Part shown: piece by piece, positions 3,701 to 21,926 of the stretch
Position numbering within the stretch: the stretch's first letter is position 1
How the letters are laid out: each line of letters opens with the position of its first letter
Source: Alphaproteobacteria bacterium
GTDB lineage: Bacteria > Pseudomonadota > Alphaproteobacteria > Bin95
Reading direction: 5' to 3'
NCBI GenBank assembly: GCA_964291285.2
Contig: OZ219787.1
Coordinates: 1 to 64,000, forward strand
DNA length: 64,000 nt
Program-made: the position numbers and the translations under genes
The notes under the pieces: model-generated
What the model saw: only the letters and a program-made list of their open reading frames with translations
Database searches by the model: none
Told to the model about the DNA's origin: nothing

Positions 3701-5430
3701 ATGATGCTGGCGCCGGTCTCCTCGGCGATTTCGAGGAGCTGTGCCGTGTGCTCGACCTGCAGCTGTCCTGCTTCGTCAACGATGATGAGCGACGTCTCGT
3801 CGAGTTCGAGCTGGCCCTTCCGGTATTTGTTGAGGAGCGTCATCAGGCACCAGGCCGGGATATGCGCGACGGCCCCGAGCGCGTTCGCGTTCCGCCAGGC
3901 CTGGGCGGTGCCGTAGACCTTCCAGCCCGCTTCGCGGGCGATGTCCGCGACGGGCGTGAGCGTCGTCGTCTTGCCCGAGCCGGCGGCGCCTTCGATGACG
4001 GTGTTGCGGCCTCCGGTGGTTGCGATCCGGACCGCCCTCGCCTGCTCGGCGCTCAGCGGTTCCCCCTTTTCGGTCAGCATGTCGAGGTGGCTGTTGACGA
4101 GTTCGGGGGGGATATCTTCGGAGGGCTGGACGGCGAGGGACTGTGCGAGGCGTCGGATATCGCGCTCACGGTCGAGATGCGCCCTGGTTGTGAAGACCCG
4201 GGTCTGGGCCATGTTTGCCTTGACGTCGGGACCTTCTCCCCAGCGGTCGAGTTCGAGCACGTCGCGGCGGTCGAGGACCTGCGATGCGACGGCTTCGATC
4301 TGCTCGGGGGCGAGCAAGCCGGGCATGATGTGGGCGATCCGCTGCATGACATCGGTGATGTGCCAGACCGCTTCGTTCTGCGTGAGCGCGCCTGGAATCT
4401 TCTGGAGGAGTTCGCGGACTTCGGCTTCGTCCTCCTCGGTGATGCTGTGCCGGGGCATGGCGTCGAGGACGGCCTGGACGTCTTCGACGAACCGGGCGCG
4501 GTCGAAGGCCCAGAAGAGAAGGCGGCCGACGGGATCGAGGCTGTGGTCCTTACCGGCTCGCGTGGCCTTGTTGATGCGTTGAGCGCCCGTTGGGTTGTCG
4601 GAGGTGGAGAATCCCTGGGCCTTTGCCGCGCTGACAATTTGCTTGCGTCGGGTGGACCAGTGATCCTGGAGGTCTTCGGGCACCCCGCGTATCCGGAAGA
4701 ACTCGCCATCGCGGCCGTGCCGCTCGACGGCGAGGCCGAGGCGCTGGGTGATGTTCCAGGCGAGCGCCAGGCGGTAGATGGAACCGGCAGTCTTGTACCA
4801 CTCGTAGAGCGGCTTCGCGTGCAGCGATCGCCACTTGCCGTCGTCGGCAAGCGCGGCGTTGAAGACGATGCAGTGGGTATGGAGCTGCGGCTCGTTCTCG
4901 CGCGATGACTGATGCTGGAAGGTTGCCGCCATGATCTTGGCGGGGAGGTCTTCGAGCTCTCCGTCATCGCCGCGGCGCCGGGTCCATGCGCAGTGTTTGT
5001 TGACGATGAGGTCGAGCGTGGAGCGCACGGCGTCGTCATGGGCGCGGGCGAGCTCGCGGTGCATGTGGTCGTCTTCGCCATGCGCCATCGCCCAGAGGGT
5101 GGAGACGGACTTGTCGGCGCTGAAGGTGAGGTCGAACGCGGCGACCCGGGTATCGCTGCCGGCGTTGCGGGTGAGCTTTACCTCGTCGCCGAGGTCGTTC
5201 GGGTCGTCGGGATTGAAGGGCGCGTAGCCCTGGTGGAGCCGGTAGAAGGCTTTGGCGTCGACGCGGCGCCCGTCCTCCAGGCCGAACAGCCCGTGCGGGT
5301 TGTACCAGACGCCGTCCGGCTCCTCGCCGCCGGTATAGTACTCCCCGGCCGGCCGGTGCGATGCCTGTGAGTGGATGTAGTAGTCGGCGGCGTCCCGGGA
5401 GCTTGAGACCTGTGCGAGGGTTCCGACCAT
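736..5430 (-). CDS. MOBF (TrwC/TraA-type) conjugative relaxase-helicase
   Basis: N-terminal DYY...EYY tyrosines, FDLTFSADKSVS, HxxSRxxxPQLHTH HUH motif, helicase GAAGSGKTT / DEAG / YALTFSSAQGAT; long C-terminal extension. Confidence 0.93.
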   Translation of the reverse strand: MVGTLAQVSSSRDAADYYIHSQASHRPAGEYYTGGEEPDGVWYNPHGLFGLEDGRRVDAKAFYRLHQGYAPFNPDDPNDLGDEVKLTRNAGSDTRVAAFDLTFSADKSVSTLWAMAHGEDDHMHRELARAHDDAVRSTLDLIVNKHCAWTRRRGDDGELEDLPAKIMAATFQHQSSRENEPQLHTHCIVFNAALADDGKWRSLHAKPLYEWYKTAGSIYRLALAWNITQRLGLAVERHGRDGEFFRIRGVPEDLQDHWSTRRKQIVSAAKAQGFSTSDNPTGAQRINKATRAGKDHSLDPVGRLLFWAFDRARFVEDVQAVLDAMPRHSITEEDEAEVRELLQKIPGALTQNEAVWHITDVMQRIAHIMPGLLAPEQIEAVASQVLDRRDVLELDRWGEGPDVKANMAQTRVFTTRAHLDRERDIRRLAQSLAVQPSEDIPPELVNSHLDMLTEKGEPLSAEQARAVRIATTGGRNTVIEGAAGSGKTTTLTPVADIAREAGWKVYGTAQAWRNANALGAVAHIPAWCLMTLLNKYRKGQLELDETSLIIVDEAGQLQVEHTAQLLEIAEETGASIIWAGDTRQQQPIGAGPGLRLLRSVTGSVLVTQIRRQRADAEDVLVHTKGITAAEARERLAAMTHAEREQIVQEYRADSDAPRFVPWQITASSNLRDGFVDDKQEAKESVAKTIAAYRERDRFHLGAHLEETLLQLVEDWDRHRQEAPDRSTLVIARTHDEIGALTPHLRKRALTEEQRTGEVTITVAGDNSETRHSNPRKILVTTGERLVIRTPCRDLGLDTGNLVTVEKIETPRDTEGNPIRNKSGQVRHVITARRDDGKLFTFDPDQVRDWSPGAGLHGLPRLDYGYALTFSSAQGATVDHAYVLADDRPALETVYPSLTRHRDRLDVYVNSEPIRMTVAERRPEYEHQRDTTDEDVLDHLATLWSRSDPKKAALDFILSPEDRAGALETPPPADPEEATPHAPAGYYKRAVRPRPPGSLSAVNWLRANRSPDRETPFLDELIRTAEQDAVDRNHTESYEQLSETIEAIKKSYRAVTERERLAAKASAVRSPTYLEALRTHRSLLDRARQALRRIVKRHQHRKAADRAGITREGLVDWIHEYAERQREFKAAAATPSQDEHLRSFESEWRAIADQARERNILPIHVPGWRAAVDRISEALQKRTVPESSQLTLNSILQDQRTAYRYDRQARNLIRLIAETHEDAKALFAATSGPHDPNLDWTGIRERQEALQKIVDHLPPADEIDPYLAHYAARANSALGDTMIARLERNFRAAYRHQIETPAAELFELTSEAVELRGHLRRTMREGGLPALYDDAHLDRLRETGRKLGQAVAAGSDAFDPELERNGVKFAALEGLAADTLATIATIDQRLDENIAGTARDLIRLRDQVQRLCDTALPEENVRVARHIVDLEQALTALENRMAALPPVDRLDTELGQLEGELSVTSLRTGLGRFHAHLRLANRAFFGDDGSSLSERLIEASRRTRQESAASPDQDRTQATEEAPETGRNLTPDPGQEKKKKTDEEEQTENAKRNISQEEDGGLSLL

Positions 5431-5439
5431 TGCCGGGGC

Positions 5440-5643
5440 TCAGCGTTCGACCTTGCGGGCGTGGTGGGCGGTGCAGAAGGCGCGGATGGCCTGCTGGATC
5501 GCGCGGCTCCGGGATATGCCGAGCTCGGCAGCGGTGATTCTCAGCGACTGCAGTTCGTAGTCGGTGAGATAGACGTACTGGCGCTTTCTGGACGTCGATG
5601 TTGGTCCGAGCCGACGGGGCTGGAATTTTCGAGCGGGCGTCAT
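5440..5643 (-). CDS. Ribbon-helix-helix relaxosome accessory protein (CopG/TrwA-like)
   Basis: RQYVYLTDYELQSLRITAAELGISRSRAIQQAI beta-helix-helix pattern directly upstream of the relaxase. Confidence 0.7.
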   Translation of the reverse strand: MTPARKFQPRRLGPTSTSRKRQYVYLTDYELQSLRITAAELGISRSRAIQQAIRAFCTAHHARKVER

Positions 5644-5659
5644 GTGGCGGTGTCTTGGT

Positions 5660-5900
5660 GCTCGGAGTTGCGAAATGCACCCATTTCGTTTGAGCAATTT
5701 TTGTGAAGAAAATTCCGGGTATTGAGGGAGTTATTTACGCCGAAGTGTTCCAAAACACATCCATGTGCAAGGGTGTGTGAACCAATTTGCTTGTTATCAG
5801 GCAGGGTCATGATGGGGTTCGCTACGGGATGGGATCATGGAAGGCATGATGATGGAAGATGGAGATGGGGGCAAGGGGTTGCGAAATGGAGTCCTGAGAG
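5660..5900. other. Candidate oriT region
   Basis: Low-GC gap between divergent mob-like genes; perfect IR CGAAATG-N4-CATTTCG (5671-5688), IR ACACATCC-N8-GGGTGTGT (~5755-5778), direct repeat GTTGCGAAATG (~5667, ~5878). Confidence 0.55.
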
Positions 5901-5957
5901 GGATATAGGATGTCGATGAATCCGGGCATGGATGAGAAGAAAGGAAGGAGGAATCAA

Positions 5958-6239
5958 ATGGTGCAAAATACCAACAAAGGTCGTCGTAATCGCAGGAGAC
6001 AGGTCAGGGAGGCAGACATAGACTTCGAAGGGATCGCAGAAGAACTTGCGAAGGTAAAGCCGAAGACGATCATGGTGAGCGATGCTCTGGAACGTCTGAT
6101 TGCGGATCTTTCCAAGGGTCGGGAGCGTGGGCTTCTGGTGGAGCAGATCGTAGAGATATGCCGGAAACGCGGTCTCGATGTGGACGAGGAGGAAGTGCGG
6201 GAGACGCTGGAAAACGCGGCGGAGCGAGCGGCGGGATGA
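5958..6239 (+). CDS. Small helical protein divergent from the relaxase, MobC-like
   Basis: AGGAGG RBS; ALERLIADLSKGRERGLLVEQIVEICRKRG resembles oriT-flanking MobC-type proteins. Confidence 0.55.
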   Translation: MVQNTNKGRRNRRRQVREADIDFEGIAEELAKVKPKTIMVSDALERLIADLSKGRERGLLVEQIVEICRKRGLDVDEEEVRETLENAAERAAG

Positions 6240-10506: not shown

Positions 10507-11358
10507 GGCAGAATCGACATTCATCGCATCCAGAGGATAGCAGAAGCGATGTGTATGAAGGCGAGGAAGTATATTGCTTTTCGGTCGTATCGGGTTGCGA
10601 TGCGGCGGAAGTGTTTGATCTTGTTGAAGTAGCGCTCGATGCGGTTTCGGTGTTTGTAGATTTCGGCGTCATAGCCGATGAGACGCTTTCGCGTTGGATT
10701 GCAGGGGATGACGGCCTCGGCCTCGATGTCGGCGATGCGGTTGCGGATGGCATTGGCGTCGTAAGCAGCGTCGGCGAGCACATGGCGGGGCCGAAACCCC
10801 TCCATCAACGCCAGGGCCTTTGGCGCGTCGCCGGCCTGTCCGGGCGAGAGGATCACGCGGAGCGGTCGTCCGAGAGTGTCGCAGGCGATGTGTATTTTGG
10901 TCGTCAGTCCGCCTCTGGAACGCCCCAGAGCCTGATCCCGGCCCCCCCTTTTCCGGTCGCCGCCTGTTGATGCGCGCGCACGATGGTGCTGTCGAGCATG
11001 AGATAGCCATTGTCGCGATCCGCCGTCAGGGTATCGAACACCCTCTCCCACACGCCCACTTTGGCCCAGCGTGTGAAACGCTTGTGCACCGACTTCCACT
11101 TCCCATAGCGCGGCGGCAGGTCGTGCCAGTGGGCGCCCGAACGAAGCACCCACAGAACCGCGTTGACGAACAACCGGTTGTCTGCTCCCGAACGCCCCGG
11201 ATCGCCCGGCTTGCCCAGAAGCAGACCTTCGATGCGGACCCACTGCGCATCCGTCAGCTCATAGCGCTTCACCATACGCCCAACTCCAACCGAAAATCAG
11301 TTGGAGCGTCATGAATCACATAATGTCTTCCCAGGGAATCCTGTATGTCGATTGAACC
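10507..11358 (-). mobile_element. IS5-family (IS427-group-like) element, 852 bp, copy 1
   Basis: IRs GGCAGAATCGACAT / GGTTCAATCGACAT, TA duplication; orfA 10904-11275 and orfB to 10521 joined by a -1 frameshift at AAAAGGGGGGG. Confidence 0.93.
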
Positions 11359-11695: not shown

Positions 11696-12087
11696 TTACG
11701 CAGGACCGGGCCGGCGCCCGATCGGGTGGAGGAAGGCCATGGCGTGCGCCGCGGCCTCGCGGAGTTCGCGCGGCGTTGCGAACGGGCCGCGAAGCTGCCA
11801 TTCCGGCTCGCGGTGGTCGCGGCGGGTGAGCCACCAATGTCCGTTGTAGGCTGCGTCCACACTGCAACGCTGGTCGACGAACAGGGTTTCGAGTGTCCGC
11901 TTCGTGGGGTTGTCGTGCAGGTATTCGCCGCGTTCGGCGTGATCGACGATCGCGCGAAGGTGCGGTCGCATTCTCGCCCAGGGCGTGGCGTCCAGCAATA
12001 CGGTGAGGCGGTTCGGAGTGCGGCCCTTCCAGTCGCTGGACGGGCGCCACATGCGGCCATCGAAGTGGAGCGGACCGCAGGGCGTCA
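11696..12087 (-). pseudogene. 5'-truncated hypothetical gene cut by the IS1-family element
   Basis: Open frame (...TPCGPLHFDGRMWRPSSDWKG...) runs directly into the left inverted repeat. Confidence 0.6.
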
Positions 12088-12185
12088 GGTAGTGTCTCAC
12101 TTTGACTTTGTGAGGCCAAATCGACCCTGTTCGCATCGTCCCCAAGCGGTGATACCATCGCCGCGTCTGGCAAGGAGGAACGACG

Positions 12186-12425
12186 ATGCCCACAGGACCG
12201 CAGGGGCAGAAGCGCCCGGCTGACGTGATCAGCAATGCCGTGCATGTCTGCAAGATCGCAGTCGGCGACATCGAGGAAACCCTTGAGGAGCAGCCCCGGC
12301 AGCCGAACAAGGCCAAGGGCGGCCGCGCCGGAGGAAAAGCCCGCGCGCGCGCGATGACGCCCGAACGGCGCAAGGAGATCGCCCAGGCCGCGGCGGCAGC
12401 GCGGTGGGCCGATGCCAAAGCGTAG
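12186..12425 (+). CDS. Small basic protein at the left end of the element
   Basis: AAGGAGG RBS; KRPADVISNAVHVCKIAVG...GGRAGGKARARAMTPERRKEIAQAAAAARW. Confidence 0.8.
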   Translation: MPTGPQGQKRPADVISNAVHVCKIAVGDIEETLEEQPRQPNKAKGGRAGGKARARAMTPERRKEIAQAAAAARWADAKA

Positions 12426-13704
12426 TACCCCCCCCCCAGGGAGTCCGAATTGGGCTAACCAGACAGTCTGGACCGGCGACAATCTGAACATCATGCGAGG
12501 CATGAACAGTGCCTCGGTTGACCTCATCTATCTCGACCCGCCTTTCAACTCGCAAGCCAACTACGCCGCGCCCATCGGCAGCAAGGCCGCCGGGGCTGCG
12601 TTCAAGGATACCTGGACGCTGACGGACGTGGACGCCGAGTGGATCAACCTCATCGAGGCGAAGCACCCGGCCCTGTATCGCGTTCTGCTCGCCGCCATGA
12701 CGGCAAGCGACAAGGCGTATCTGGTCTATATGGCGGCGCGGCTGCTGGAGATGCACCGCCTGCTGAAGCCGAGCGGCACCATCTACCTGCACTGCAATCA
12801 ATTCGCGTCTCACTACCTGAAGCTGGTGATGGACGCAATTTTCGGGCGCGGGAACTTCATCAACGAAATCGTGTGGAACTACGGCACCCCGTCCGGGGGG
12901 CGCGTCGGCGGCAAGAAGCCCGTGAAGGTGCATGACTGTCTTCTGGCCTATGCCTCGGAATACGGGAAGCACTTCTACGCGCGGCAATACACGCCCTATA
13001 CGGACAGGTATCTGCGCTGGTTCCGGCACAAGGATGAAAAGGGCAGGCCCTACCGCACCCGACAGCGGGCCGGAGGGATCGTCCGCCAATACCTCGACGA
13101 AAGCCCTGGTATGCCGCTCTCGACGGTCTGGTCGGACATCATGCAGCTTTCCAGCCGCCGGGGATGGTTCCCGACGACCAAGGGCAAGGAAGAGACCGGA
13201 TACCCGACACAGAAGCCGCTGGCGCTTCTTCGCCGAATCATCCTTTCGTCATGCCCGGCCGACGGCATGATCCTCGACCCGTTCTGCGGCTGCGCAACAA
13301 CGTGCGTTGCGGCACAAGACGCGGGGCGGCAATGGGTGGGGATCGACATATCCCCGAAGGCTGCCGAGCTTGTCCAGACTCGGATGCGTGACGAGCTGGG
13401 CATGTTCTTCAAGGGCACGGTCCGCACCGATCTGCCGGAGCGCACGGACCTAGTCCCGCTGCTTCCGTACAACCACCCGAACAACAAGCGTCACCTTTAC
13501 GGCGAACAGGCGGGATACTGCCGAGGCTGCCAGCATCACTTTGAGCTTCGGCACTTTCATGTGGACCATATCATTGCGCGGGCCAAGGGCGGGACCGACC
13601 ACATCAGCAACCTCCAACTCCTCTGCGGCGCCTGCAACGCCGTGAAGGGCGACCGGGGGATGGAGTATCTGCGGGCCAAGCTCCAGCTCCCCATGGCAGC
13701 ATAA
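12412..13704 (+). CDS. N4/N6 DNA methyltransferase (beta class) fused to a C-terminal HNH endonuclease
   Basis: LIYLDPPF (motif IV), YPTQKP, LDPFCGCAT (motif I); CRGC...HVDHIIARAKGGTDHISNLQLLCGACNAVKG HNH. Confidence 0.92.
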   Translation: MPKRSTPPPGSPNWANQTVWTGDNLNIMRGMNSASVDLIYLDPPFNSQANYAAPIGSKAAGAAFKDTWTLTDVDAEWINLIEAKHPALYRVLLAAMTASDKAYLVYMAARLLEMHRLLKPSGTIYLHCNQFASHYLKLVMDAIFGRGNFINEIVWNYGTPSGGRVGGKKPVKVHDCLLAYASEYGKHFYARQYTPYTDRYLRWFRHKDEKGRPYRTRQRAGGIVRQYLDESPGMPLSTVWSDIMQLSSRRGWFPTTKGKEETGYPTQKPLALLRRIILSSCPADGMILDPFCGCATTCVAAQDAGRQWVGIDISPKAAELVQTRMRDELGMFFKGTVRTDLPERTDLVPLLPYNHPNNKRHLYGEQAGYCRGCQHHFELRHFHVDHIIARAKGGTDHISNLQLLCGACNAVKGDRGMEYLRAKLQLPMAA

Positions 13705-13758
13705 AGATAAAATGACATTGTGCTTGACAGTGTGCAATCGTCCTTTATCTTCAACGCC
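13704..13758 (+). promoter_or_regulatory. Sigma70 promoter of the transposase inside an imperfect palindrome
   Basis: TTGACA (13724) - 16 bp - TATCTT (13746); flanking IR AAGATAAA...TTTATCTT; ATG 7 bp after the -10. Confidence 0.6.
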
Positions 13759-14670
13759 ATGAACAAGCTCTCAACCGCCAAGCGCGCTCACATCCTCCAC
13801 ATGCTCGTCGAGGGTGTGTCGATGCGGGCCATCACGCGGATCGCGGATGTCTCGATCAACACCGTCTCCAAGCTGCTCGTGGACGCGGGCCATGCCTGCG
13901 CCATGCACCACGACCAGGCAGTCCGGGAGGTTCACGCCCGCCACGTCCAGTGCGACGAGATATGGGCCTTCTGCTACGCCAAGAAGAAGAACGTCCCCTT
14001 CGCCCTGAAACCTCCCCCAGGCGCGGGCGACCTCTGGACATGGACCGCTCTCGACAGCGACTCGAAGATAATCCTGTCCTACCGGTTCGGCACCCGCGAA
14101 GCCGACGTTGCCCTCGACCTCATGGACGATCTGCGCTCGCGGCTGGTGAACCGGGTGCAACTGACCACGGATGGCCATGCCGCCTATCTGGAAGCCGTCG
14201 AGGGCGCGTTCGGGGGCGACGTGGACTATGCCCAGCTCGTGAAGCTCTACGGCGTGCTGGAAGCGGGCAAGGAGGCGTCCAAACGCTACTCGCCTTCGGA
14301 GTGCGTCGGCATCATCAAGAAGACGGTCGAGGGCTGGCCCGAGCCGGAGAAGATCAGCACGTCACACGTCGAGCGCCACAACCTCACCATGCGGATGGGG
14401 ATGCGCCGGTTCACGCGGCTCACCAACGCCTTCTCCAAGAAGGTCGAGAACCATATCCACATGAGCTCGCTGTTCTTCTGCTTCTACAACTTCGTGCGGG
14501 TCCACAAGACGCTCAGGGTGACGCCCGCCATGGCCGCCGGCGTGGACAGGAGCCTGCACGACATGGAGTGGATCGTCGGCCTCATCGACGCCGCCGCGCC
14601 GCCACCGAAGAAGCCTGGTCCGGCGAAGGGGACACGCTACCGCACCCGCAACAATCCCTGCGGCGCATGA
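13759..14670 (+). CDS. IS1-family DDE transposase
   Basis: N-terminal HTH (GVSMRAITRIADVSINTV), QCDEIWAF, TTDG, STSHVERHNLTMRMGMRRFTRLTNAFSKK. Confidence 0.9.
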   Translation: MNKLSTAKRAHILHMLVEGVSMRAITRIADVSINTVSKLLVDAGHACAMHHDQAVREVHARHVQCDEIWAFCYAKKKNVPFALKPPPGAGDLWTWTALDSDSKIILSYRFGTREADVALDLMDDLRSRLVNRVQLTTDGHAAYLEAVEGAFGGDVDYAQLVKLYGVLEAGKEASKRYSPSECVGIIKKTVEGWPEPEKISTSHVERHNLTMRMGMRRFTRLTNAFSKKVENHIHMSSLFFCFYNFVRVHKTLRVTPAMAAGVDRSLHDMEWIVGLIDAAAPPPKKPGPAKGTRYRTRNNPCGA

Positions 14671-14894
14671 CAACCCTCATCGTCATCGTGGGCGGCGCGG
14701 TGCTGCTCGGCCTCCTGGGCATGGTCGCTGGACGCAATGCCCCGAGGCCGGAGCAGCGGCCGGACCCCGGCCCGCGCTGCACGGCCCCAGGCCCGTATGG
14801 CGAGATGCCCTGCGGTGCGAGGGCGACCCACACGGTGAACGGCGAGCCGCGCTGCCGACGGCACCGGAACACGAGGGAGACCTACCGTGGATGA
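14667..14894 (+). CDS. Small membrane-anchored protein with a Cys/His motif
   Basis: ATGA overlap with the transposase stop; TM helix then C-x10-C-x13-C-x2-H. Confidence 0.6.
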   Translation: MTTLIVIVGGAVLLGLLGMVAGRNAPRPEQRPDPGPRCTAPGPYGEMPCGARATHTVNGEPRCRRHRNTRETYRG

Positions 14895-15168
14895 GGACAC
14901 CCGGAAGATCGTCGAGATGGCCTACGACGGCACCGCCGAGACCGCGTTCATCTTCGAGTTGGCGCAAGCTCTTCGAGAACTCGCCCAAATCCGTGGCTGT
15001 GCAACTCTCGCAGCAGATCTTCTGTCACGCCTGACCGAAGCATCACTTCCCTCAACGTTGTCCGAGGACGAAAAAGCACGGCTCCGCACGATGCGCAAAC
15101 TTCTGATTTCAGCCGTAGGGAGCCTCCTGCATCAGGAGATGTTCGGTAACGATCCGACGATTCAGTAG
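14887..15168 (+). CDS. Hypothetical protein (an antisense alternative exists at 14948-15172)
   Basis: GAGGGAG RBS and overlap with the upstream ORF; competing minus-strand ORF has a GGAGG RBS and CxxC. Confidence 0.45.
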   Translation: MDEDTRKIVEMAYDGTAETAFIFELAQALRELAQIRGCATLAADLLSRLTEASLPSTLSEDEKARLRTMRKLLISAVGSLLHQEMFGNDPTIQ

Positions 15169-15226
15169 CCATGGGAACCTCCATCTGGCTTGTGATCGCC
15201 CAGTAAAGTCAAAGTGAGACACTACC

Positions 15227-18200
15227 GGCCAGCAAGCCTCTGAACCTCACGGCGACGCGGGGCAGCGGGGACCAGTACACGCTCGACTGGGATGCGCCGT
15301 CGAACAGCGGCAGCACCATCACCGGCTACCAGGTGCGGTACCGCGAGCGCGGCACAGGTCCGTGGACCGAGTTTAACAATCTCGTCACCACGGTCCCCCG
15401 CACCACCACGTCCCCGGCATTCTCGGGCAAGGCCTGGGAATTCCAGGTGGCGGCGGTCAACTCGGAGGGGACCGGCGCCTACTCGGACACCGCCATCCTG
15501 CCCGGTCCGCCGGGCGCGCCGGGAAATTTCCGGGTTACCGACATATCCAACCAGAACCAGGACGTGCTGGCGTGGGACGTTCCGTCCGACAACGGTGGCG
15601 GCCAGATCACGGGTTACAAGCTGGAGCGCCGTCAGATCGGTCAGACAGCCTGGGAGACGGCTGTGGACAAGGGTGCGACGCAGCGGACCCACAACTACGG
15701 CAAGGCGTCGTGGGGCGTCGGCTACGACTACCGTGTGCGGGCGGTGAACAGCGCCGGCGAGGGCGCCAACTCCAACGTGATAAAGGTCGGCGGCCGGCCG
15801 ACGTTGAAGTCCGGCGCCGCCGGGACGCCCACGGCCACGCCGGCCACCGACCGCGTCGCGGTGACCCTCGACTGGTCCGGCACGCTCGACCAGAACGGCG
15901 GCAAGGCCATCAGCGAATGGCGCTACCGGTACAAGCCGTCCAGCAGCAGCGCGTGGTCACAGGTCAACAACATTGCCCCCGGCACGACCAGCGTGACCGT
16001 CGAGGGCCCGCCTCTGCTCCCCGGCATCGCCTACGACTTCGACGTGATCGCGTGCAACGAGGACCGCTGCAGCTTCACCAGCCCCGACGCCACAGGCGCC
16101 ATGACGCTCGACCAGGCCACCGCATCGATCGCCAACGCGGCGGCGGACGAGGGCGACGCCATTACCTTCACAGTCACCCTCTCTTCGGCGCGCACCTCGA
16201 ACGTGACGCTCAACTGGGCGACCTCGAACGGCAGCGCCACGGCGCCCGCCGACTACACGGCGACGGCGAGCGGCTCGGTGACGATTCCGGCGGGGCAGAC
16301 CAGCCGGACCTTCATGGTCCAGACCGCCCCGGACGCGCTCGACGAGGACGACGAGACCTTCACGGTGACGCTGAGCGCGCCCTCGGACGGGCTGCCGGCG
16401 AGCGTGTTGCTGGCCCAGGACCCCACCGCCACCGGCACCATCACCGACGACGACGCCCCGCCGGTGCTGTCGATTACCTCGCCCAGCGTGAACGAGGGCG
16501 ACAGCGGCACCACGGCGATGACGTTCGAGTTGACGCTGGACGCCCCGAGCGGGCGCGAGGTGGCGGTGGGTGTCGACTTCGCAAGAGAGGACTCCACGGC
16601 TACGGAGGTCGTCGACTATTTGTGGTTTGTAGGGCACTCGGTGACCTTCATGCCGGGCGAGACCGCCAAGACCTACAACGTGACCGTGAACGGGGACACA
16701 ACTGTCGAGGAGGACGAGACCGTCGTGGTGCAGTTCAGCATCACAAAAGCGGTATTCGACCCCAGCCTAAATGCAGATACCGAAACCGTCATGGGCCTCG
16801 CGTTCGCCGACGTTACCGGCACCATCCTCAACGACGACACCGCGCCCACGACCATCGCGCTGAGCGTCAGTCCGACGAGCATCAACGAGGGCGATACCGC
16901 GACCGGGGTCACGCTCACCGCGTCCTTCCCGCCGGGCAGCGGCACCCTGGCCACCGCCACCGACCTGGTATTCACCGGCGCCGGCACCGCGACGCCTGCC
17001 GACGACTATGCGTTGACCGTCGGCGGCTCCGGCGAACTGACCATACGAATTCCCGCCGGCGCGACCAGCGGTACCAACGCCAACACGGTCACCCTCTCGC
17101 CGGTCAATGACGACGACCCCGAAGGCGACGAGACCATCGTATTCAGCGTCGCCACGCCGCCGTCCGGCTTCACGTCGGTCAGCCCGGCCACGTTCACCAT
17201 CGTGGACGACGACCAGTCGGCGAGGGTCTCCACCACCCACCCGTCACCCCTGACGGAGGCCGGGCTGGACGGGGCGCGGCTGACCGTGGACCTCGTGGGG
17301 ACGGAATACATCTCCTCGCTGGCGCCGGGCGATTTCGGCCTCCTGCCGCAAGGCACCGCCGGGCTGTCCGTCGCCTCGGTCGACCGGCGGAGCAACACGC
17401 GTGCGGTCGTGACCCTGGCCTTCACCGGCAATTTCGCCGCGGACCTCGACTTGCAGGTCGCGGTGGGCGGCTCGGCGCACACGGCGGCGAGCACGTCGCT
17501 GACCACGGCCGCGGTCACGGTCACGCAGGCGCCGAAGCCGGGGCAGGTGACGAACGTGGCGGCCACGGGCGGGCCGGGCAGCCTGGCGGTGACCTGGCGG
17601 GCCGCCTCCAACGCCGACGGCTACACCGTGTCCTGGTGGCCGACCGCATCCCCCGGCGACGTTGAGAGCCGGCGGGTGGCCGGCGGCTCGATCACACGCA
17701 CGGACATAGGCGGGCTGGCGGGCGAGACCGGCTATTCGGCGCGGGTCGTGGCGAACAGCAACCATGCCCCGGACGGCCCCCCGTCGAACACCGCCTCGGC
17801 GATCACAGAGCCGTCAGACGCCATCGTCTCCGGCACCGACCCCGCGCCGCTGACGGAAGCGAACCTGGACGGCGCAAAGCTTGTCGTGGAGTTCCTGGAC
17901 CAGCCCTATCTCGCCTGGTGGCGCACCCTGCAGGTCGGCCAGTTCACCGCGAGCGGCGTCCCCGGCGTGCGGGTCAGCGCCGTCGAGCGCCTGTCGGACC
18001 GGCAGGCGCGGCTGACGCTGGCCTACGACGACACCGACTTCGACACGGACCGGAGGCTGCGGATCGCCATCGACGGGCTGGCGTTCAACTCCGGGAACGA
18101 CATCAGCGCCGCGACCGACGTGCGGGCGGTGGTGGAAGCGCCGCCGGCGCGGGTGCGGAACGTGCGGGCGACCGCCGGCACGCAGCGGGTCCGGGTGCAG

Positions 18201-21200
18201 TGGGACGAGGTGCCGACCGCAATCGAGAACCTGGACCTCAACGTCTACAAGGTGCAGTGGAAGGAAAGCGCAGCGTCCGGCGGCTGGCGCGAGCGCAGGG
18301 TGCGGGGCTCGCAGACGGCGCTGACCATCGGCGCGGCTCCCGGCACCGGGTACACGGTGCGGGTCGTCGCCACCCGGCACAAGGCCCCGGACGGGCCGCG
18401 CTCGGCGGAGGCGCAGGCGACGACGCCGGCGTTCGGCTACCGCGTCAAGGGCACCGAGCCGGCGCAGCTCACGGGCGTCAACCTGAACGGCGCCGCGGTG
18501 ATCGTCGAACTGCAGGGCGCGGAGTGGAACCTTGGCCTGCCCCGGCGCCTCTTCAGGCTGTCCGGCCTCGACACCGGCGTCCGGGTGGAGCGGGTGGAGC
18601 CTGTCTCGCGCTCCGAGGCGCGGATCGTCCTCGGCCACCGGGGCCCCAGCATCACGGAAGACGGCGCGCTCACGATCACGATCGACGAGGACACCTACTC
18701 CTGGAACGGGGACCTCACGGTCACCGTGCCGGTCAAGGCGCCCGGCCACGCCAGCGGCGTGCGCGTCAGGGAGACCACCGACACCACGGTCACGGTGGAG
18801 TGGGACCGCTTCGAGGGCGTCAACGTCTATTACCAGGTGCGCTGGAAGGAAAGCGAAGCGGACGGCGGCTGGCGCGGGCGCTGGATGCGAGGGTGGAGCA
18901 ACCCGAAGAGCATGCCCTCGTACCGGATACGCGACCTGACGCCGGGCACGGAGTACACCGTGCAGGTCCGGTACTACGACCGGGGCGGCGTCGGCTTCGG
19001 CCGGTGGACGACCGCGACCATGACGCCCGGGGAAACGGAGACGCCCGGGGGCGATTTCGAGGTAGCCCAGAACCAGACGGCCGGCGTCACGGTCGCCGCC
19101 GACGACCCGGTGCAGGTCGGGGAAGGCGGCGAGGCCGGCTACACGGTGGTGCTCGACGGCCGGCCCGCGGGCGACGTCACGATCGCGGTGAGCAGCGACA
19201 ATGCCGACGTGACGGCAGAGCCGGCGAGCCTCACCTTCACTCCCGACAACTGGCAGACGGCGCAGACCGTGACCGTGAGCGCGGCCCATGACGGCGACGC
19301 GGCGGACGAGGCCGCCACCCTCAGCCACGCGGTCAGCGGCGCCGACGGTTACGCCGGGATCGCCGTCGCCTCCGTCGCCGTCGTCGTCACCGACGACGAC
19401 ACCGCCGGGGTGACGGTGAGCGAGAGCACCCTCAGCCTGGAGGAGGGCGGCAGTTCCACCTACACGCTGGTGCTGGACACGCAGCCCGTGAGCGACGTGG
19501 TCATCTATCCCACAGCCCACGGCGACGGCCTGACGGCAGCGCCGTCGGAGCTCACCTTCACGCCGCAGAACTGGAACCAGGCGCAGACGGTCACCGTCAG
19601 CGCGGCCCACGACGGTGACAAGCTGGACGGGCAGGGCATCATCACCCATTCGATCCTCGTTCCGCCCGAGTCCGCCTACGCCAGCGTCGGCGTGGCCGGC
19701 ATTGCCGTCAGCGTCGACGACGACGATTTGCAGGCGCTGGCGGCCCAGGAGGCCCCGCCGCCGCTATGGACGCTCACGCTGGTGCGCGAGGACCGGCCGT
19801 TCACGACAGTCGCCGAGGCGGACGCGGAATATCCCTCGACCTTCCTGCGCCTGGAGCGCGGCGCCTCGACCGCGCCGATCCCCGACTGGCTGCCGGTGAC
19901 GGTCGGCGGCACGGCGGCCAGCCCGGCGGACTACGAGTTCAACCGGGGCAACCAGTTCCGGGGCATCACCCGCAAGAGCGACGACCTCATGCGCGGCGCG
20001 CGGAAGATCACCGTCAGGGGCGATGCGCTGGACGAGGGCGCGGAGACGATCACCTTCTCGGTGACCGTCGAGGGCGAGACCCTGACCGCGACGCTGGACA
20101 TCGTCGAGGAGCCCCTGGCCGCGGTGGCCGATGCGTCGGTGCAGGAGGCCGCGGGCGCGGTGCTCGGCTTCCGGGTGACGCTGGCGCCGGCGCCGGACGG
20201 CCCGGTGACGGTGGACTGGACGACCGCGGACGGCAGCGCCGCGGCGGGCGCGGACTACACGGCCGCCTCGGGCACGCTCACCTTCGCGGCCGGCGACACG
20301 GAGAAGACGATCTCCGTCGCGGTGCTCGACGACGACATCGACGAGGGCGCGGAGACGATGACGCTCAGGCTCTCGAACGCCGCGGGCGCGGTGCTCGGCG
20401 ACGCGGAGGCGGTGGGCACCATCGCCAACACCGACCCGATGCCGCAGGCGTGGCTCGCGCGGTTCGGGCGCACGGTGGCCGACCAGGTGATCGATGCGGT
20501 GACGGCGCGCTTCGAGGCCGCGCCGCAGGCGGGCTCCGCGGTCAGTATCGCCGGGCAGGCGATGGGCGCGGGCGGCTCGCCGGAGGCGCGGGCGGCCTGC
20601 GCGGCGCGGCCCCCGGCGCACCGGGACCGGCACGGGATCGACGCCCCGGCGGACGGCAACCGGGCCGGGTTCGGCGCCGGCGCGGGCGGCCCCGGGGAGC
20701 GCTGCCGGTCCGAAATGCGCGCGCTGACCGGGCGCGACCTGCTGACGGGGTCCTCGTTCTCGGTCACCGGCGGCAGCGCGGAGGCCGGCTTCGGCACGGT
20801 CTGGGGCTCGGGGGCGGTCACCCGCTTCGACGGGCGCGAGGGCGGCCTCACGCTCGACGGCGAGGTCCTGAGCGCGCTGCTGGGCGCGGACTTCCGGCGC
20901 GACCGGGCGGTGCTGGGCCTCGCGCTGGCGCACAGCCGGGGCGACGGCTCCTACCGGGGCGCCGGCAGCGGCGAGGTGGAGTCGACGCTCACCGGCCTCT
21001 ACCCCTACGGGCGCTACGAGGCGGGCGAACGGCTCTCGCTCTGGGGCATCGCCGGCTTGGGCGCGGGCACGCTGACGCTGACGCCGGAGGGCGGCGGGGC
21101 GGTCGAGGCCGACACGGACATGGCCATGGCCGCGGCGGGCGCTCGCGGGGTGCTGGCCGAGGCGCCGGACGGGGGCGGTCCCGAACTCGCGGTCAAGTCC

Positions 21201-21926
21201 GACCTGCTGTTGCTGCGCATCTCGTCCGACGCCGCGCGCGACGGCGCGGGCGGGCGGCTCGCGGCGGCGGACGCCGACGTGACCCGGCTGCGGCTCGGGC
21301 TGGAGGGGAGCTGGGGCGGCGTCGGGACCGAAGGCGGCGTCACGCTGACGCCGACGCTGGAAGTGGGGCTGCGCCATGACGGCGGCGACGCCGAGACCGG
21401 GTTCGGCGTCGAGGCCGGCGCCGGGCTCGCCTGGACCGACCCGGCGAGCGGGATTGCGGCCGAACTCAGGGCCCGCGGCCTGCTGGCGCACGAGGCCGGC
21501 GGGTTCCGCGAGCGCGGCGTCTCCGGCTCGTTCGCCTGGGACCCGGCATCGGGCTCCGGCCGCGGGCCGTCGCTGACGCTGACCCAGACCCTGGGCGGCC
21601 CGGCTTCGGGCGGCGTGGACGCGCTGTTCCGCGACGGTGCGCTCACCGGGCTCGACGCGAACGGCGACGGGTTCGGCGCGCGCCGCTTCGAGACGAAGCT
21701 CGGCTACGGCTTCGGCGCGTTCGGGGACCGGTTCACGGTGACGCCGGAGGCCGGCTTCGGCCTCTCCAACGCCGGCCGCGACTACCGCCTCGGCTGGCGG
21801 CTGAACCCCTCGGGCGGCGGCTCGTCCCTCGAACTCCGGCTGGAGGCGACGAGGCGCGAGGCCGCCAACGACAACGGCGCGGAGCCCGAACACACGGTCG
21901 GGGTGCGGCTCAACGCGCGCTGGTAG
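15227..21926 (+). CDS. Giant FN3/Calx-beta surface adhesin with autotransporter-like beta-barrel, 5'-truncated
   Basis: FN3 repeats (W..P.....ITGY.V.YR), Calx-beta (DGSAAAGADY, DDDIDEGAET), C-terminal barrel ending in W; no signal peptide, frame begins at the transposon IR. Confidence 0.88.

Follow-up and report, generated by a model that had tools for sequence, protein, structure and literature searches.

A multi-copy transposon of an IS1-family group with defence-rich variable cargo, and its apparently phase-variable methylase-HNH gene

The DNA analysed here is a stretch of 64,000 nucleotides (called the window below) from the genome of an alphaproteobacterium, which comprises 5 contigs and 6.1 Mb (genome G000). 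At positions 12088-15226 the window contains an IS1-type insertion sequence (IS) of 3139 bp with five genes, all on the plus strand. We consider it likely that this element is a recently active transporter IS (tIS) of the IS1 family, which carries a gene for a fused DNA methylase and HNH nuclease (methylase-HNH) as cargo, with probable contingency control of that gene. The copies of the element in the genome have the same gene content, two of them are complete and one is flanked by an 8-bp target duplication, and the cargo of related elements is variable. A preliminary description of the window had already proposed a transporter IS at this place, and both the recurrence of the 3.1-kb unit and the layout of its relatives support the proposal.

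Copies of the element in the genome

The element is bounded by terminal inverted repeats of 22 nt which are 100% complementary to each other and both start with GGTAGTG, as had been noted in the preliminary description. By our own arithmetic, about 1e-6 perfect 22-nt inverted pairs would be expected by chance in 4.5 kb. The calls of open reading frames (ORFs) and the Pfam matches also agree with the gene order given there, namely a small basic gene (orf1), the methylase-HNH gene, a promoter, a single-ORF transposase gene (tnp) and two small ORFs (orf4 and orf5; Table 1). The genome holds three copies of the element, the window copy, L002 and L003, which are 100% identical apart from one base. 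L002 is complete (3138 bp), and the sequence ATGGGCCG stands at either side of it as a perfect target duplication of 8 bp. The earlier concern that the unit might never be found at other sites with target duplications is thus removed by these copies.

When we inspected contigs of the three public sequencing runs that contain the element, those of two runs (X2 and X3) had both flanks of the window copy running on into non-IS sequence, indicating that the insertion or arrangement at the window site is not common to all samples. Three solitary matches to the 22-bp end, at 18-21 of 22 positions and with no transposase match nearby, were also seen in the genome (G000 C3:228187, C3:964762 and C1:1208945), and these may be remnants or small non-autonomous derivatives. 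At L003 (about 4570-6066, G000 C3), another sequence takes the place of the missing first 71 bp; it occurs again some 1 kb beyond, with the same peptide-like stretch in two ORFs, and HicB- and HicA-like small ORFs adjoin the replaced left end.

Four conserved modules and three slots in related elements

A collection of species-representative genomes yielded at least 589 related stretches, seen in assemblies of Alpha- and Gammaproteobacteria, Acidobacteriota, Dehalococcoidia, Binatia, Nitrospirales and Syntrophaceae, and the best 80 loci were kept for analysis. Elements were delimited by a script from matching ends and target duplications. A complete element of 1933-4790 bp (median 3114) was found in 61 of the best 80 loci, and all later counts rest on these 61. 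Their two ends agree at 16-20 of 20 positions, and the target duplication matches at 8 of 8 positions in 60 elements and at 7 of 8 in the remaining one. The duplicated sequences differ among the 61, with no evident target specificity. In a narrower circle, transposases of 59-70% identity were present in 12 of 61 related genomes, the window's own genome counted in, and six complete elements were obtained from these closer relatives, four of them with perfect 8-bp duplications.

The structural comparison revealed four conserved modules, that is, the left end, orf1, the tnp promoter together with tnp, and the right end, and between them three slots of non-homologous content. Slot 1, from the left end to orf1, measures 78-1892 bp in the 61 relatives and 98 bp in the window element. 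Slot 2, from orf1 to tnp, is never empty in the relatives (579-3568 bp) and holds about 1.3 kb, the methylase-HNH gene, in the window element. Slot 3, from tnp to the right end, ranges from 12 to 1079 bp; it is at least 233 bp in 20 of the 61 relatives, and the 556 bp of the window element are occupied by orf4 and orf5. The suggestion of cargo on both sides of the transposase is therefore borne out by the slot behind tnp, and a third slot exists between the left end and orf1, beyond the two that the preliminary description had recognized. That description had also proposed to look for constant ends with variable, defence-like cargo in relatives, which is what the 61 elements gave, and it had named inverted repeats tight around the transposase gene as an observation that would count against it. 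In all 61 relatives the duplications lie outside the cargo, and at least 579 bp separate orf1 from tnp.

We then compared four pairs of elements whose tnp genes share 78-91% DNA identity. Homology was confined to orf1 (about 95-240 bp), to the promoter and tnp (about 915 bp) and to the ends, with matches of 25-100 bp at the left end in three pairs and of about 25 bp at the right end in three, and the DNA between the conserved modules was unrelated. When five cargo labels were placed on a quick maximum-likelihood tree of 53 transposases, 20 changes were required, compared with a minimum of 4 and a shuffled mean of 23.2 (7 of 200 shuffles were as low). Since the observed number is near the shuffled mean, the cargo is almost unlinked to the ancestry of the transposase. 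In four annotated plasmid records, from Acidiphilium, Hoeflea, Methylocapsa and Mesorhizobium, the genes upstream of tnp vary from record to record. The transposase is annotated as 'IS1 family transposase' in three of these and as 'helix-turn-helix domain-containing protein' in the fourth, and small genes of about 60-80 aa, labelled 'hypothetical protein' or 'histone H1', stand further upstream in three of the four. The small ORFs in the left slot of the relatives do not cluster together and were not counted as a conserved gene.

Cargo of the slots

From the slots we collected 187 candidate cargo ORFs of at least 60 aa, 141 of which (at least 88 aa) were scanned against Pfam. The calling was crude, taking the longest non-overlapping ORFs, and some candidates are spurious in GC-rich DNA. 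The Pfam scan gave a match for 63 ORFs and none for 78, and all-against-all BLAST of the 187 sorted them into 137 clusters, 116 of which are singletons. The most frequent cargo combines HTH_3 and peptidase M78, usually with a partner gene of no known kind (15 loci), followed by P63C (6 loci), and by STAND/AAA NTPases and ClpP/SDH-type proteases (3 loci each). HigB, Fic, NYN, Abi_2 (below cutoff), DUF4760 and DUF6941 were found at 2 loci each, and PemK/MazF, HicB, AAA_21, FRG, SocA_Panacea, dCTP deaminase and Bro-N at 1 locus each. Judged by these predicted domains, the slots are rich in toxin-antitoxin, abortive-infection and other defence-type genes. A methylase-HNH gene 54% identical to that of the window is the cargo at 2 loci (L047 and L083), and L083, with orf1, methylase-HNH and tnp in this order, has the layout of the window element minus orf4 and orf5. 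The slots also collect nested insertions, because four members (L046, L047, L061 and L081) hold other transposase genes; two of them have IS4/IS5-type genes, one an IS66-type gene and one a further IS1-type fragment.

Transposase and its promoter

The preliminary description had called the transposase a single-ORF protein of IS1 type, and this agrees with a 303-aa ORF that matches the Pfam IS1 model PF03400 (E-value 2.1e-9) with 38.3 bits against a cutoff of 24.1. The NCBIfam IS1 model is the best transposase model (1.8e-21), and its score of 77 bits, which stays under the cutoff of 100, speaks for tnp as a distant member of the family and counts against a close placement. Residues D66, D138 and E205 are invariant in 53 sequences. 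The DDE domain, the 22-bp ends and the 8-bp target duplications, in L002 as well as in the relatives, are those of the IS1 family. Instead of the two genes insA and insB' joined by a -1 frameshift in about 0.8 kb, tnp is one ORF in an element of 3139 bp, and the element is therefore not a classical IS1. In this respect the element resembles the single-ORF subgroups of the IS1 family in ISfinder.

Just 5' of tnp lies a sigma-70-like site, TTGACA-16-TATCTT, at 13724-13751, the single such site in 12000-15300, compared with a mean of 0.5 in shuffled sequence. The position of the promoter is kept in the relatives, with CTTGNN in 60 of 61 and CTTGAC in 46 of 61. The earlier reading of a palindromic promoter thus stands as far as the promoter is concerned; the palindrome consists of an 8-bp inverted pair, AAGATAAA at 13704-13711 and TTTATCTT at 13744-13751, which by itself would be weak evidence.

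The methylase-HNH protein and its C tract

The predicted protein combines a methylase domain (PF01555, 7.5e-38, residues 36-321) with a C-terminal HNH domain (PF01844, 5.4e-12, residues 370-415), and PADLOC, which recognises the methylase part alone, reports MTase_II (1.6e-51). The motifs DPPF, TQKP and FxGCAT of a beta-class amino-methyltransferase and the HNH residues C370, C373, D385, H386, N400, C405, C408 and N409 are invariant in 24 aligned homologues. The family is large; 8000 candidates were scored, and all 120 members among the matches listed carry both domains, being named there just 'DNA methyltransferase' or 'HNH endonuclease'. The plasmid search gave no close fused relative and only methylases at no more than 38% identity. 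Based on its domains, a role of the methylase-HNH as a restriction-modification or addiction unit, as suggested in the preliminary description, is plausible.

The gene begins with an ATG that is followed closely by a homopolymer of ten C (C10). With C10, the ATG reads in phase into the conserved N-terminus (NWANQTVWTGDNL), while with C9 or C12 it is out of frame. In the C9 state, the TAG of orf1 lies in frame directly upstream, and there is no start before the conserved part. The tract has 10, 10 and 9 C in the three genomic copies, and this is the sole difference among them. In the contigs of the three public runs X1, X2 and X3, all from one study, the tract is C10, C12 and C9, respectively, and is the only indel site in the element, at depths of 125-471. 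The other differences between the runs in the compared stretch are a substitution at 14070 in X3, inside the element, and one at 11268 in X2, outside it. The IS1-borne orthologues have C9 (L047) and G7 (L083) at the same position, and as assembled the ATG is out of frame in both.

These are features of a contingency locus, namely a repeat in the 5' coding part that sets the frame and varies in length between copies and samples. Based on these observations, the C tract suggests phase-variable expression of the methylase-HNH, and the gene is most likely a contingency locus predicted to be on with C10 and off with C9 or C12. The 6.1-Mb genome contains 36 homopolymers of at least 9 nt, all of G or C, whose lengths are spread flatly over 9-16 nt with no steep fall. 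Of these, 33 are not part of the IS copies and are candidates for additional contingency loci.

The fusion on IS1595-family transposons

The same genome carries the fusion on a second kind of transposon. At L121 (834-3326; G000 C3:1312202-1314694) there is an element of 2.49 kb with imperfect ends of 38 nt, present in four copies in the genome (the others at C3:2119347, C3:664813 and C2:1045193). It contains a methylase-HNH paralogue, 45% identical to that of the window, and on the opposite strand a transposase of the IS1595 family (PF12762, 1.1e-38). In this paralogue the ATG and the conserved start are separated by 7.9 copies of an 11-nt unit, GGCGACGCAGC, which put the ATG out of frame, and one further unit would bring it back into frame. 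An IS1595 transposase also stands directly 5' of the methylase-HNH gene at L122 (G000 C5:334000-339000) and at L124 (G335 C4:173852-178081), and IS1595-type transposases lie near it at L131 and L139. The fusion is therefore a recurrent passenger of two related transposon families. We had considered that homologues without a repeat might be non-IS copies, and dropped this idea, as L122 and L124 sit behind IS1595 transposases. At L122, an IS4-type transposase gene follows the methylase-HNH gene.

The small genes orf1, orf4 and orf5

The preliminary description had taken the small basic gene for a passenger. This was wrong, since tblastn found a homologue of orf1 5' of tnp and on the same strand in 60 of the 61 complete elements, making it a conserved core gene. 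Its consensus reads MPKGPxGxKRPADVIGNAVxVxxIATGE ... GGKARAxxLTPERRxEIAxKAAxxRW, and the AlphaFold model shows three helices (pLDDT 79, pTM 0.35). A search of the orf1 profile against solved structures gave a chance-level match alone (E 0.47). The protein falls into Atlas clusters of an unnamed family that are automatically labelled 'RNA-binding protein', which is a lead only, and the predicted complex of transposase and orf1 scored 0.13 against a mark of 0.32, a result that bears neither way. From its constancy and position, our guess is that orf1 may be a nucleic-acid-binding accessory or regulatory protein of the element. Its C-terminal GGKARA...RW motif occurs in phrog_2384 too, and recurs at the N-termini of P63C cargo proteins (L052, L059, L100, L114 and L117; minus-strand matches just 5' of tnp); the motif looks like a small portable module.

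Behind tnp, orf4 has a hydrophobic N-terminus and a Cys-containing tail, and its third-codon GC content (GC3) in its own frame is coding-like. Genome-sequence searches and the Atlas gave no relatives of orf4, and Pfam, NCBIfam, PADLOC and phrog gave no match. For orf5, 12 relatives of 80-97 aa were found among 1.8 billion representatives, which indicates a real but rare family. A word-indexed search matched orf5 to itself alone, a metagenome scan gave no relative, and a search with alignment A4 did not find the gene in 400 other genomes of the class. As to a possible toxin-antitoxin pair of orf4 and orf5, orf5 shows only sub-threshold likeness to antidote or repressor families (PF21716, 0.0043, 17.3 bits with a cutoff of 27; phrog_4268, 8.9e-5), and orf4 has no match.

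The region around the element is IS-rich. About 0.8 kb to its left, an IS4/IS5-type transposase gene at 10521-11275 on the minus strand is split into two overlapping frames, a DUF4096 part and a DDE_Tnp_1 part. To its right, the fn3/Calx-beta gene encodes at least 2197 aa, and its 5' part is missing at the window site.

Table 1. Features of the IS1-type element and its flanks in the window
Feature	Position	Strand	Evidence or remark
Left flank 8-mer GGGCGTCA	12080-12087		No repeat at right flank of window copy; matches first 8 bases of L003 right flank
Left terminal inverted repeat GGTAGTGTCTCACTTTGACTTT	12088-12109	+	22 nt, 100%; end type common to the 61 related elements
orf1, 79 aa, basic, three predicted helices	12186-12425	+	tblastn homologue in 60/61 complete relatives
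Methylase-HNH fusion, 430 aa, middle-slot cargo	12412-13704	+	PF01555, PF01844, PADLOC MTase_II
C10 homopolymer, 16 nt past methylase-HNH ATG	12428-12437	+	Tract comparison among copies and runs
tnp promoter region, TTGACA-16-TATCTT inside 8-bp inverted pair AAGATAAA/TTTATCTT	13704-13751	+	Motif scan; sequence reading
tnp, single-ORF IS1-family DDE transposase, 303 aa, N-terminal helix-turn-helix	13759-14670	+	PF03400; catalytic triad
orf4, 75 aa, cargo of slot behind tnp	14667-14894	+	ATGA start overlapping tnp stop; GC3 0.86
orf5, 93 aa	14887-15168	+	8-nt overlap with orf4; rare small-protein family
Right terminal inverted repeat	15205-15226	-	22-nt pair with left arm
Right flank, large fn3/Calx-beta repeat gene, 5' side cut by element	15227-21926	+	Frame open up to IS end

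Proposed mechanism and alternative explanations

We suggest that the transposase would bind the ends and insert the whole unit by an 8-bp staggered cut, as in IS1, with orf1 as a putative nucleic-acid-binding protein in an accessory or regulatory role. Cargo could be exchanged by recombination within the conserved modules. In the window element, the middle slot holds a methylase-HNH with intact catalytic residues and the slot behind tnp a two-gene module of orf4 and orf5. The C tract right behind the ATG would set the frame, and slippage would turn the methylase-HNH on or off.

Some observations weigh against this picture, and those on the transposon itself need to be considered together. At the window copy the flanks, GGGCGTCA (left) and GGCCAGCA (right), show no target-site duplication, L003 is truncated and lacks its left 71 bp, and a clean insertion is visible in only one of the three genomic copies. 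Furthermore, 19 of the 80 related loci gave no credible end pair by the script and were excluded from the counts; short contigs, degenerate ends or false end pairs are possible causes. No match to orf1 was found in Pfam, NCBIfam or PADLOC, and its role is guessed from its conservation and position. From the missing duplication and the truncated copy it could be argued that the region is not one transposon, and that a small IS1-type element and its neighbours were bracketed by a distant end, in a composite or one-ended manner, and duplicated by recombination. We hold this to be very improbable, because no second match to the 22-bp end occurs inside any of the three copies, with no inner IS1-type end near tnp, because L002 is the full unit between identical 8-bp repeats, and because the 61 relatives share the layout, with the duplications and the spacing of orf1 and tnp described above. 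As for the flanks of the window copy, GGGCGTCA ends its left flank and also opens the right flank of L003, and recombination between two inverted copies would yield exactly this pattern. The left end of L003, where the reciprocal junction of such an inversion would lie, is replaced by other DNA. Stop-free spans across the joined left flank of the window copy and right flank of L003 were no longer than those of controls in GC-rich DNA, so that length leaves a one-gene origin undecided, and the left side of L003 holds other small genes and a repeat, where the 5' part of the fn3 gene was not found. For these reasons the shared 8-mer is the evidence to which the inversion model comes down.

Regarding the tract, its lengths were read from assemblies and from contigs in which a three-copy repeat is collapsed, homopolymer lengths are prone to error, and L047 and L083 come from metagenome-assembled genomes. 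In the IS-borne homologues L122 and L124 (IS1595) and L132 (IS1 type) the gene starts without a repeat, the remaining homologue loci examined have no G/C repeat at the tract position, and the genome's own gene call of 400 aa starts past the tract, so that a downstream start which ignores the tract is possible. The tract differences might then be sequencing or assembly artefacts or neutral slippage scars, with translation from M28 or M31 whatever the tract length; that the upstream ATG is out of frame in L083, L047, L121 and L132 as assembled, and is perhaps not the start, points the same way. We find this unlikely. In three copies and three runs, with considerable contig depth, no other site of the 3.1 kb has an indel, three IS1-borne orthologues have a long homopolymer of different bases at the same codon position (C10, C9 and G7), and the IS1595 paralogue has at this place an 11-nt repeat, whose unit length is not divisible by 3. 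The homology of the family (NW.NQT.WTGDNL) begins 5' of M28, so that a start at M28 or M31 would lose conserved residues, and long homopolymers are rare in the genome. We give about even odds to the methylase-HNH being a single-chain, restriction-modification-like defence or epigenetic switch whose expression slippage turns on and off. Classical post-segregational killing is a poor match for it, since both activities of a fused chain decay together. Another view is that the enzyme does not serve restriction at all, and is either an orphan methylase with the function of a switchable epigenetic regulator, as phase-variable methylases are known to have, or a protein that serves the transposon through methylation-coupled control of transposition or HNH nicking; the HNH domain would then have a role outside defence. 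The fusion is cargo of two transposon families in one genome (IS1 type, and IS1595 type at L121 and L122) and stands next to IS1595 transposases elsewhere (L124, L131 and L139), which fits a transposon-tied function, there is no separate nuclease or specificity gene, and a fused enzyme is incapable of classical addiction. Yet the slots of the relatives hold defence and toxin-antitoxin genes and not transposition genes, 21 of 27 homologue loci (L125-L151) have no IS1 or IS1595 transposase within 1.5 kb by the search made, and the invariant metal-binding and catalytic residues of the HNH domain argue for a working nuclease, and we therefore regard this view as possible and somewhat doubtful. Returning to the transporter IS with a contingency-controlled passenger, a wider version may be put forward tentatively, with more doubt than confidence: the group would be a modular shuttle of defence cassettes, orf1 a new accessory protein needed by all of them, cargo would change by slot exchange, and the methylase-HNH would be an uncharacterised single-chain restriction-modification enzyme whose copies are switched independently.

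Significance

If the wider version were true, it would describe a multi-copy, transposon-borne epigenetic and defence switch outside host-adapted pathogens, in which switches of this sort are known, and the 33 other G/C tracts would form a wider contingency repertoire. As vehicles of one or two defence or toxin-antitoxin genes each, small transposons of 2-5 kb would offer immunity genes an inexpensive and very frequent way to spread between distant bacteria. Because their ends are constant, the slots can readily be searched for new defence genes; 78 of the 141 scanned cargo ORFs are without a Pfam family. For the control of IS1-type transposition, it matters that an IS1 lineage has a conserved accessory gene that is so far unexplained. 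Finally, with a methylase-nuclease under repeat control on a multi-copy transposon, phase-variable methylation would reach free-living high-GC bacteria as well, and switching would be linked to mobile DNA.

Comparison with known systems

Classical IS1 is an element of about 0.77 kb with insA/insB' and a programmed frameshift; the ends of IS1 elements follow the consensus GGnnnTG over about 20-25 bp, and their target duplication is 8-9 bp. The element described here shares with it a Pfam IS1-type DDE transposase, ends of about 22 bp and a short target duplication (8 bp here). It differs in the single-ORF tnp, an unrelated conserved orf1 lying 1.3 kb upstream, three cargo slots and a total length of 1.9-4.8 kb in the group. 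ISfinder presumably lists IS1-family members of up to 4.6 kb, and the work on transporter IS in the IS1 and IS1595 families reportedly goes back to Siguier, Gagnevin and Chandler in 2009.

The tIS, with passenger genes inside its ends, is an established concept that passages of the literature tie to work on IS1 and IS1595 (PMC3129680, PMC9330008, PMC7986276). Our element agrees with it in carrying passengers inside its ends, and the same genome has IS1595-family transposons with a methylase-HNH passenger. No counterpart to the conserved orf1, the layout of four modules and three slots, the defence-rich cargo and the repeat-controlled methylase-HNH came up in the literature searched. The searches, which covered open-access text, did not turn up an IS1 subgroup that combines a conserved orf1 with three slots and defence cargo, or a repeat-controlled methylase-HNH on an IS. 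The preliminary description had presented the element as the best candidate for an undescribed system; the kind of element is known and already in print, while the architecture of the subgroup and the switchable cargo look undescribed in that text.

Among other mobile units, Tn7-like transposons are described by Benler et al. (2021, PMC8649781) as having a constant core with defence-rich variable cargo, and to this extent the two groups are alike in combining a constant transposition core with highly variable, defence-rich content. Tn7-like elements are large, encode several transposition proteins and target attachment sites, whereas the IS1 group is 2-5 kb with one transposase plus orf1 and no evident target specificity. 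Furuta et al. (PMC2853133) reported transposon-like restriction-modification units that have 8-bp duplications.

Host-adapted bacteria are known for phase-variable methylase and restriction-modification genes, such as those of phasevarions and HpyAII (PMC7494987). There, as in our element, a simple-sequence repeat in the 5' coding part puts a methylase or nuclease gene in or out of frame. The differences are that ours is a methylase-HNH fusion on a multi-copy transposon in a high-GC genome, and that switching within a clone is a prediction from sequence here. The protein is also comparable to single-polypeptide Type IIC/IIG-like enzymes, which have methylase and nuclease domains in one chain. 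Type IIG enzymes join a PD-(D/E)XK nuclease to a gamma-class methylase. In contrast, a beta-class N6_N4 methylase is followed by a C-terminal HNH domain in our predicted protein. The apparent phase-variable control of a transposon-borne methylase-nuclease is the most interesting new lead.

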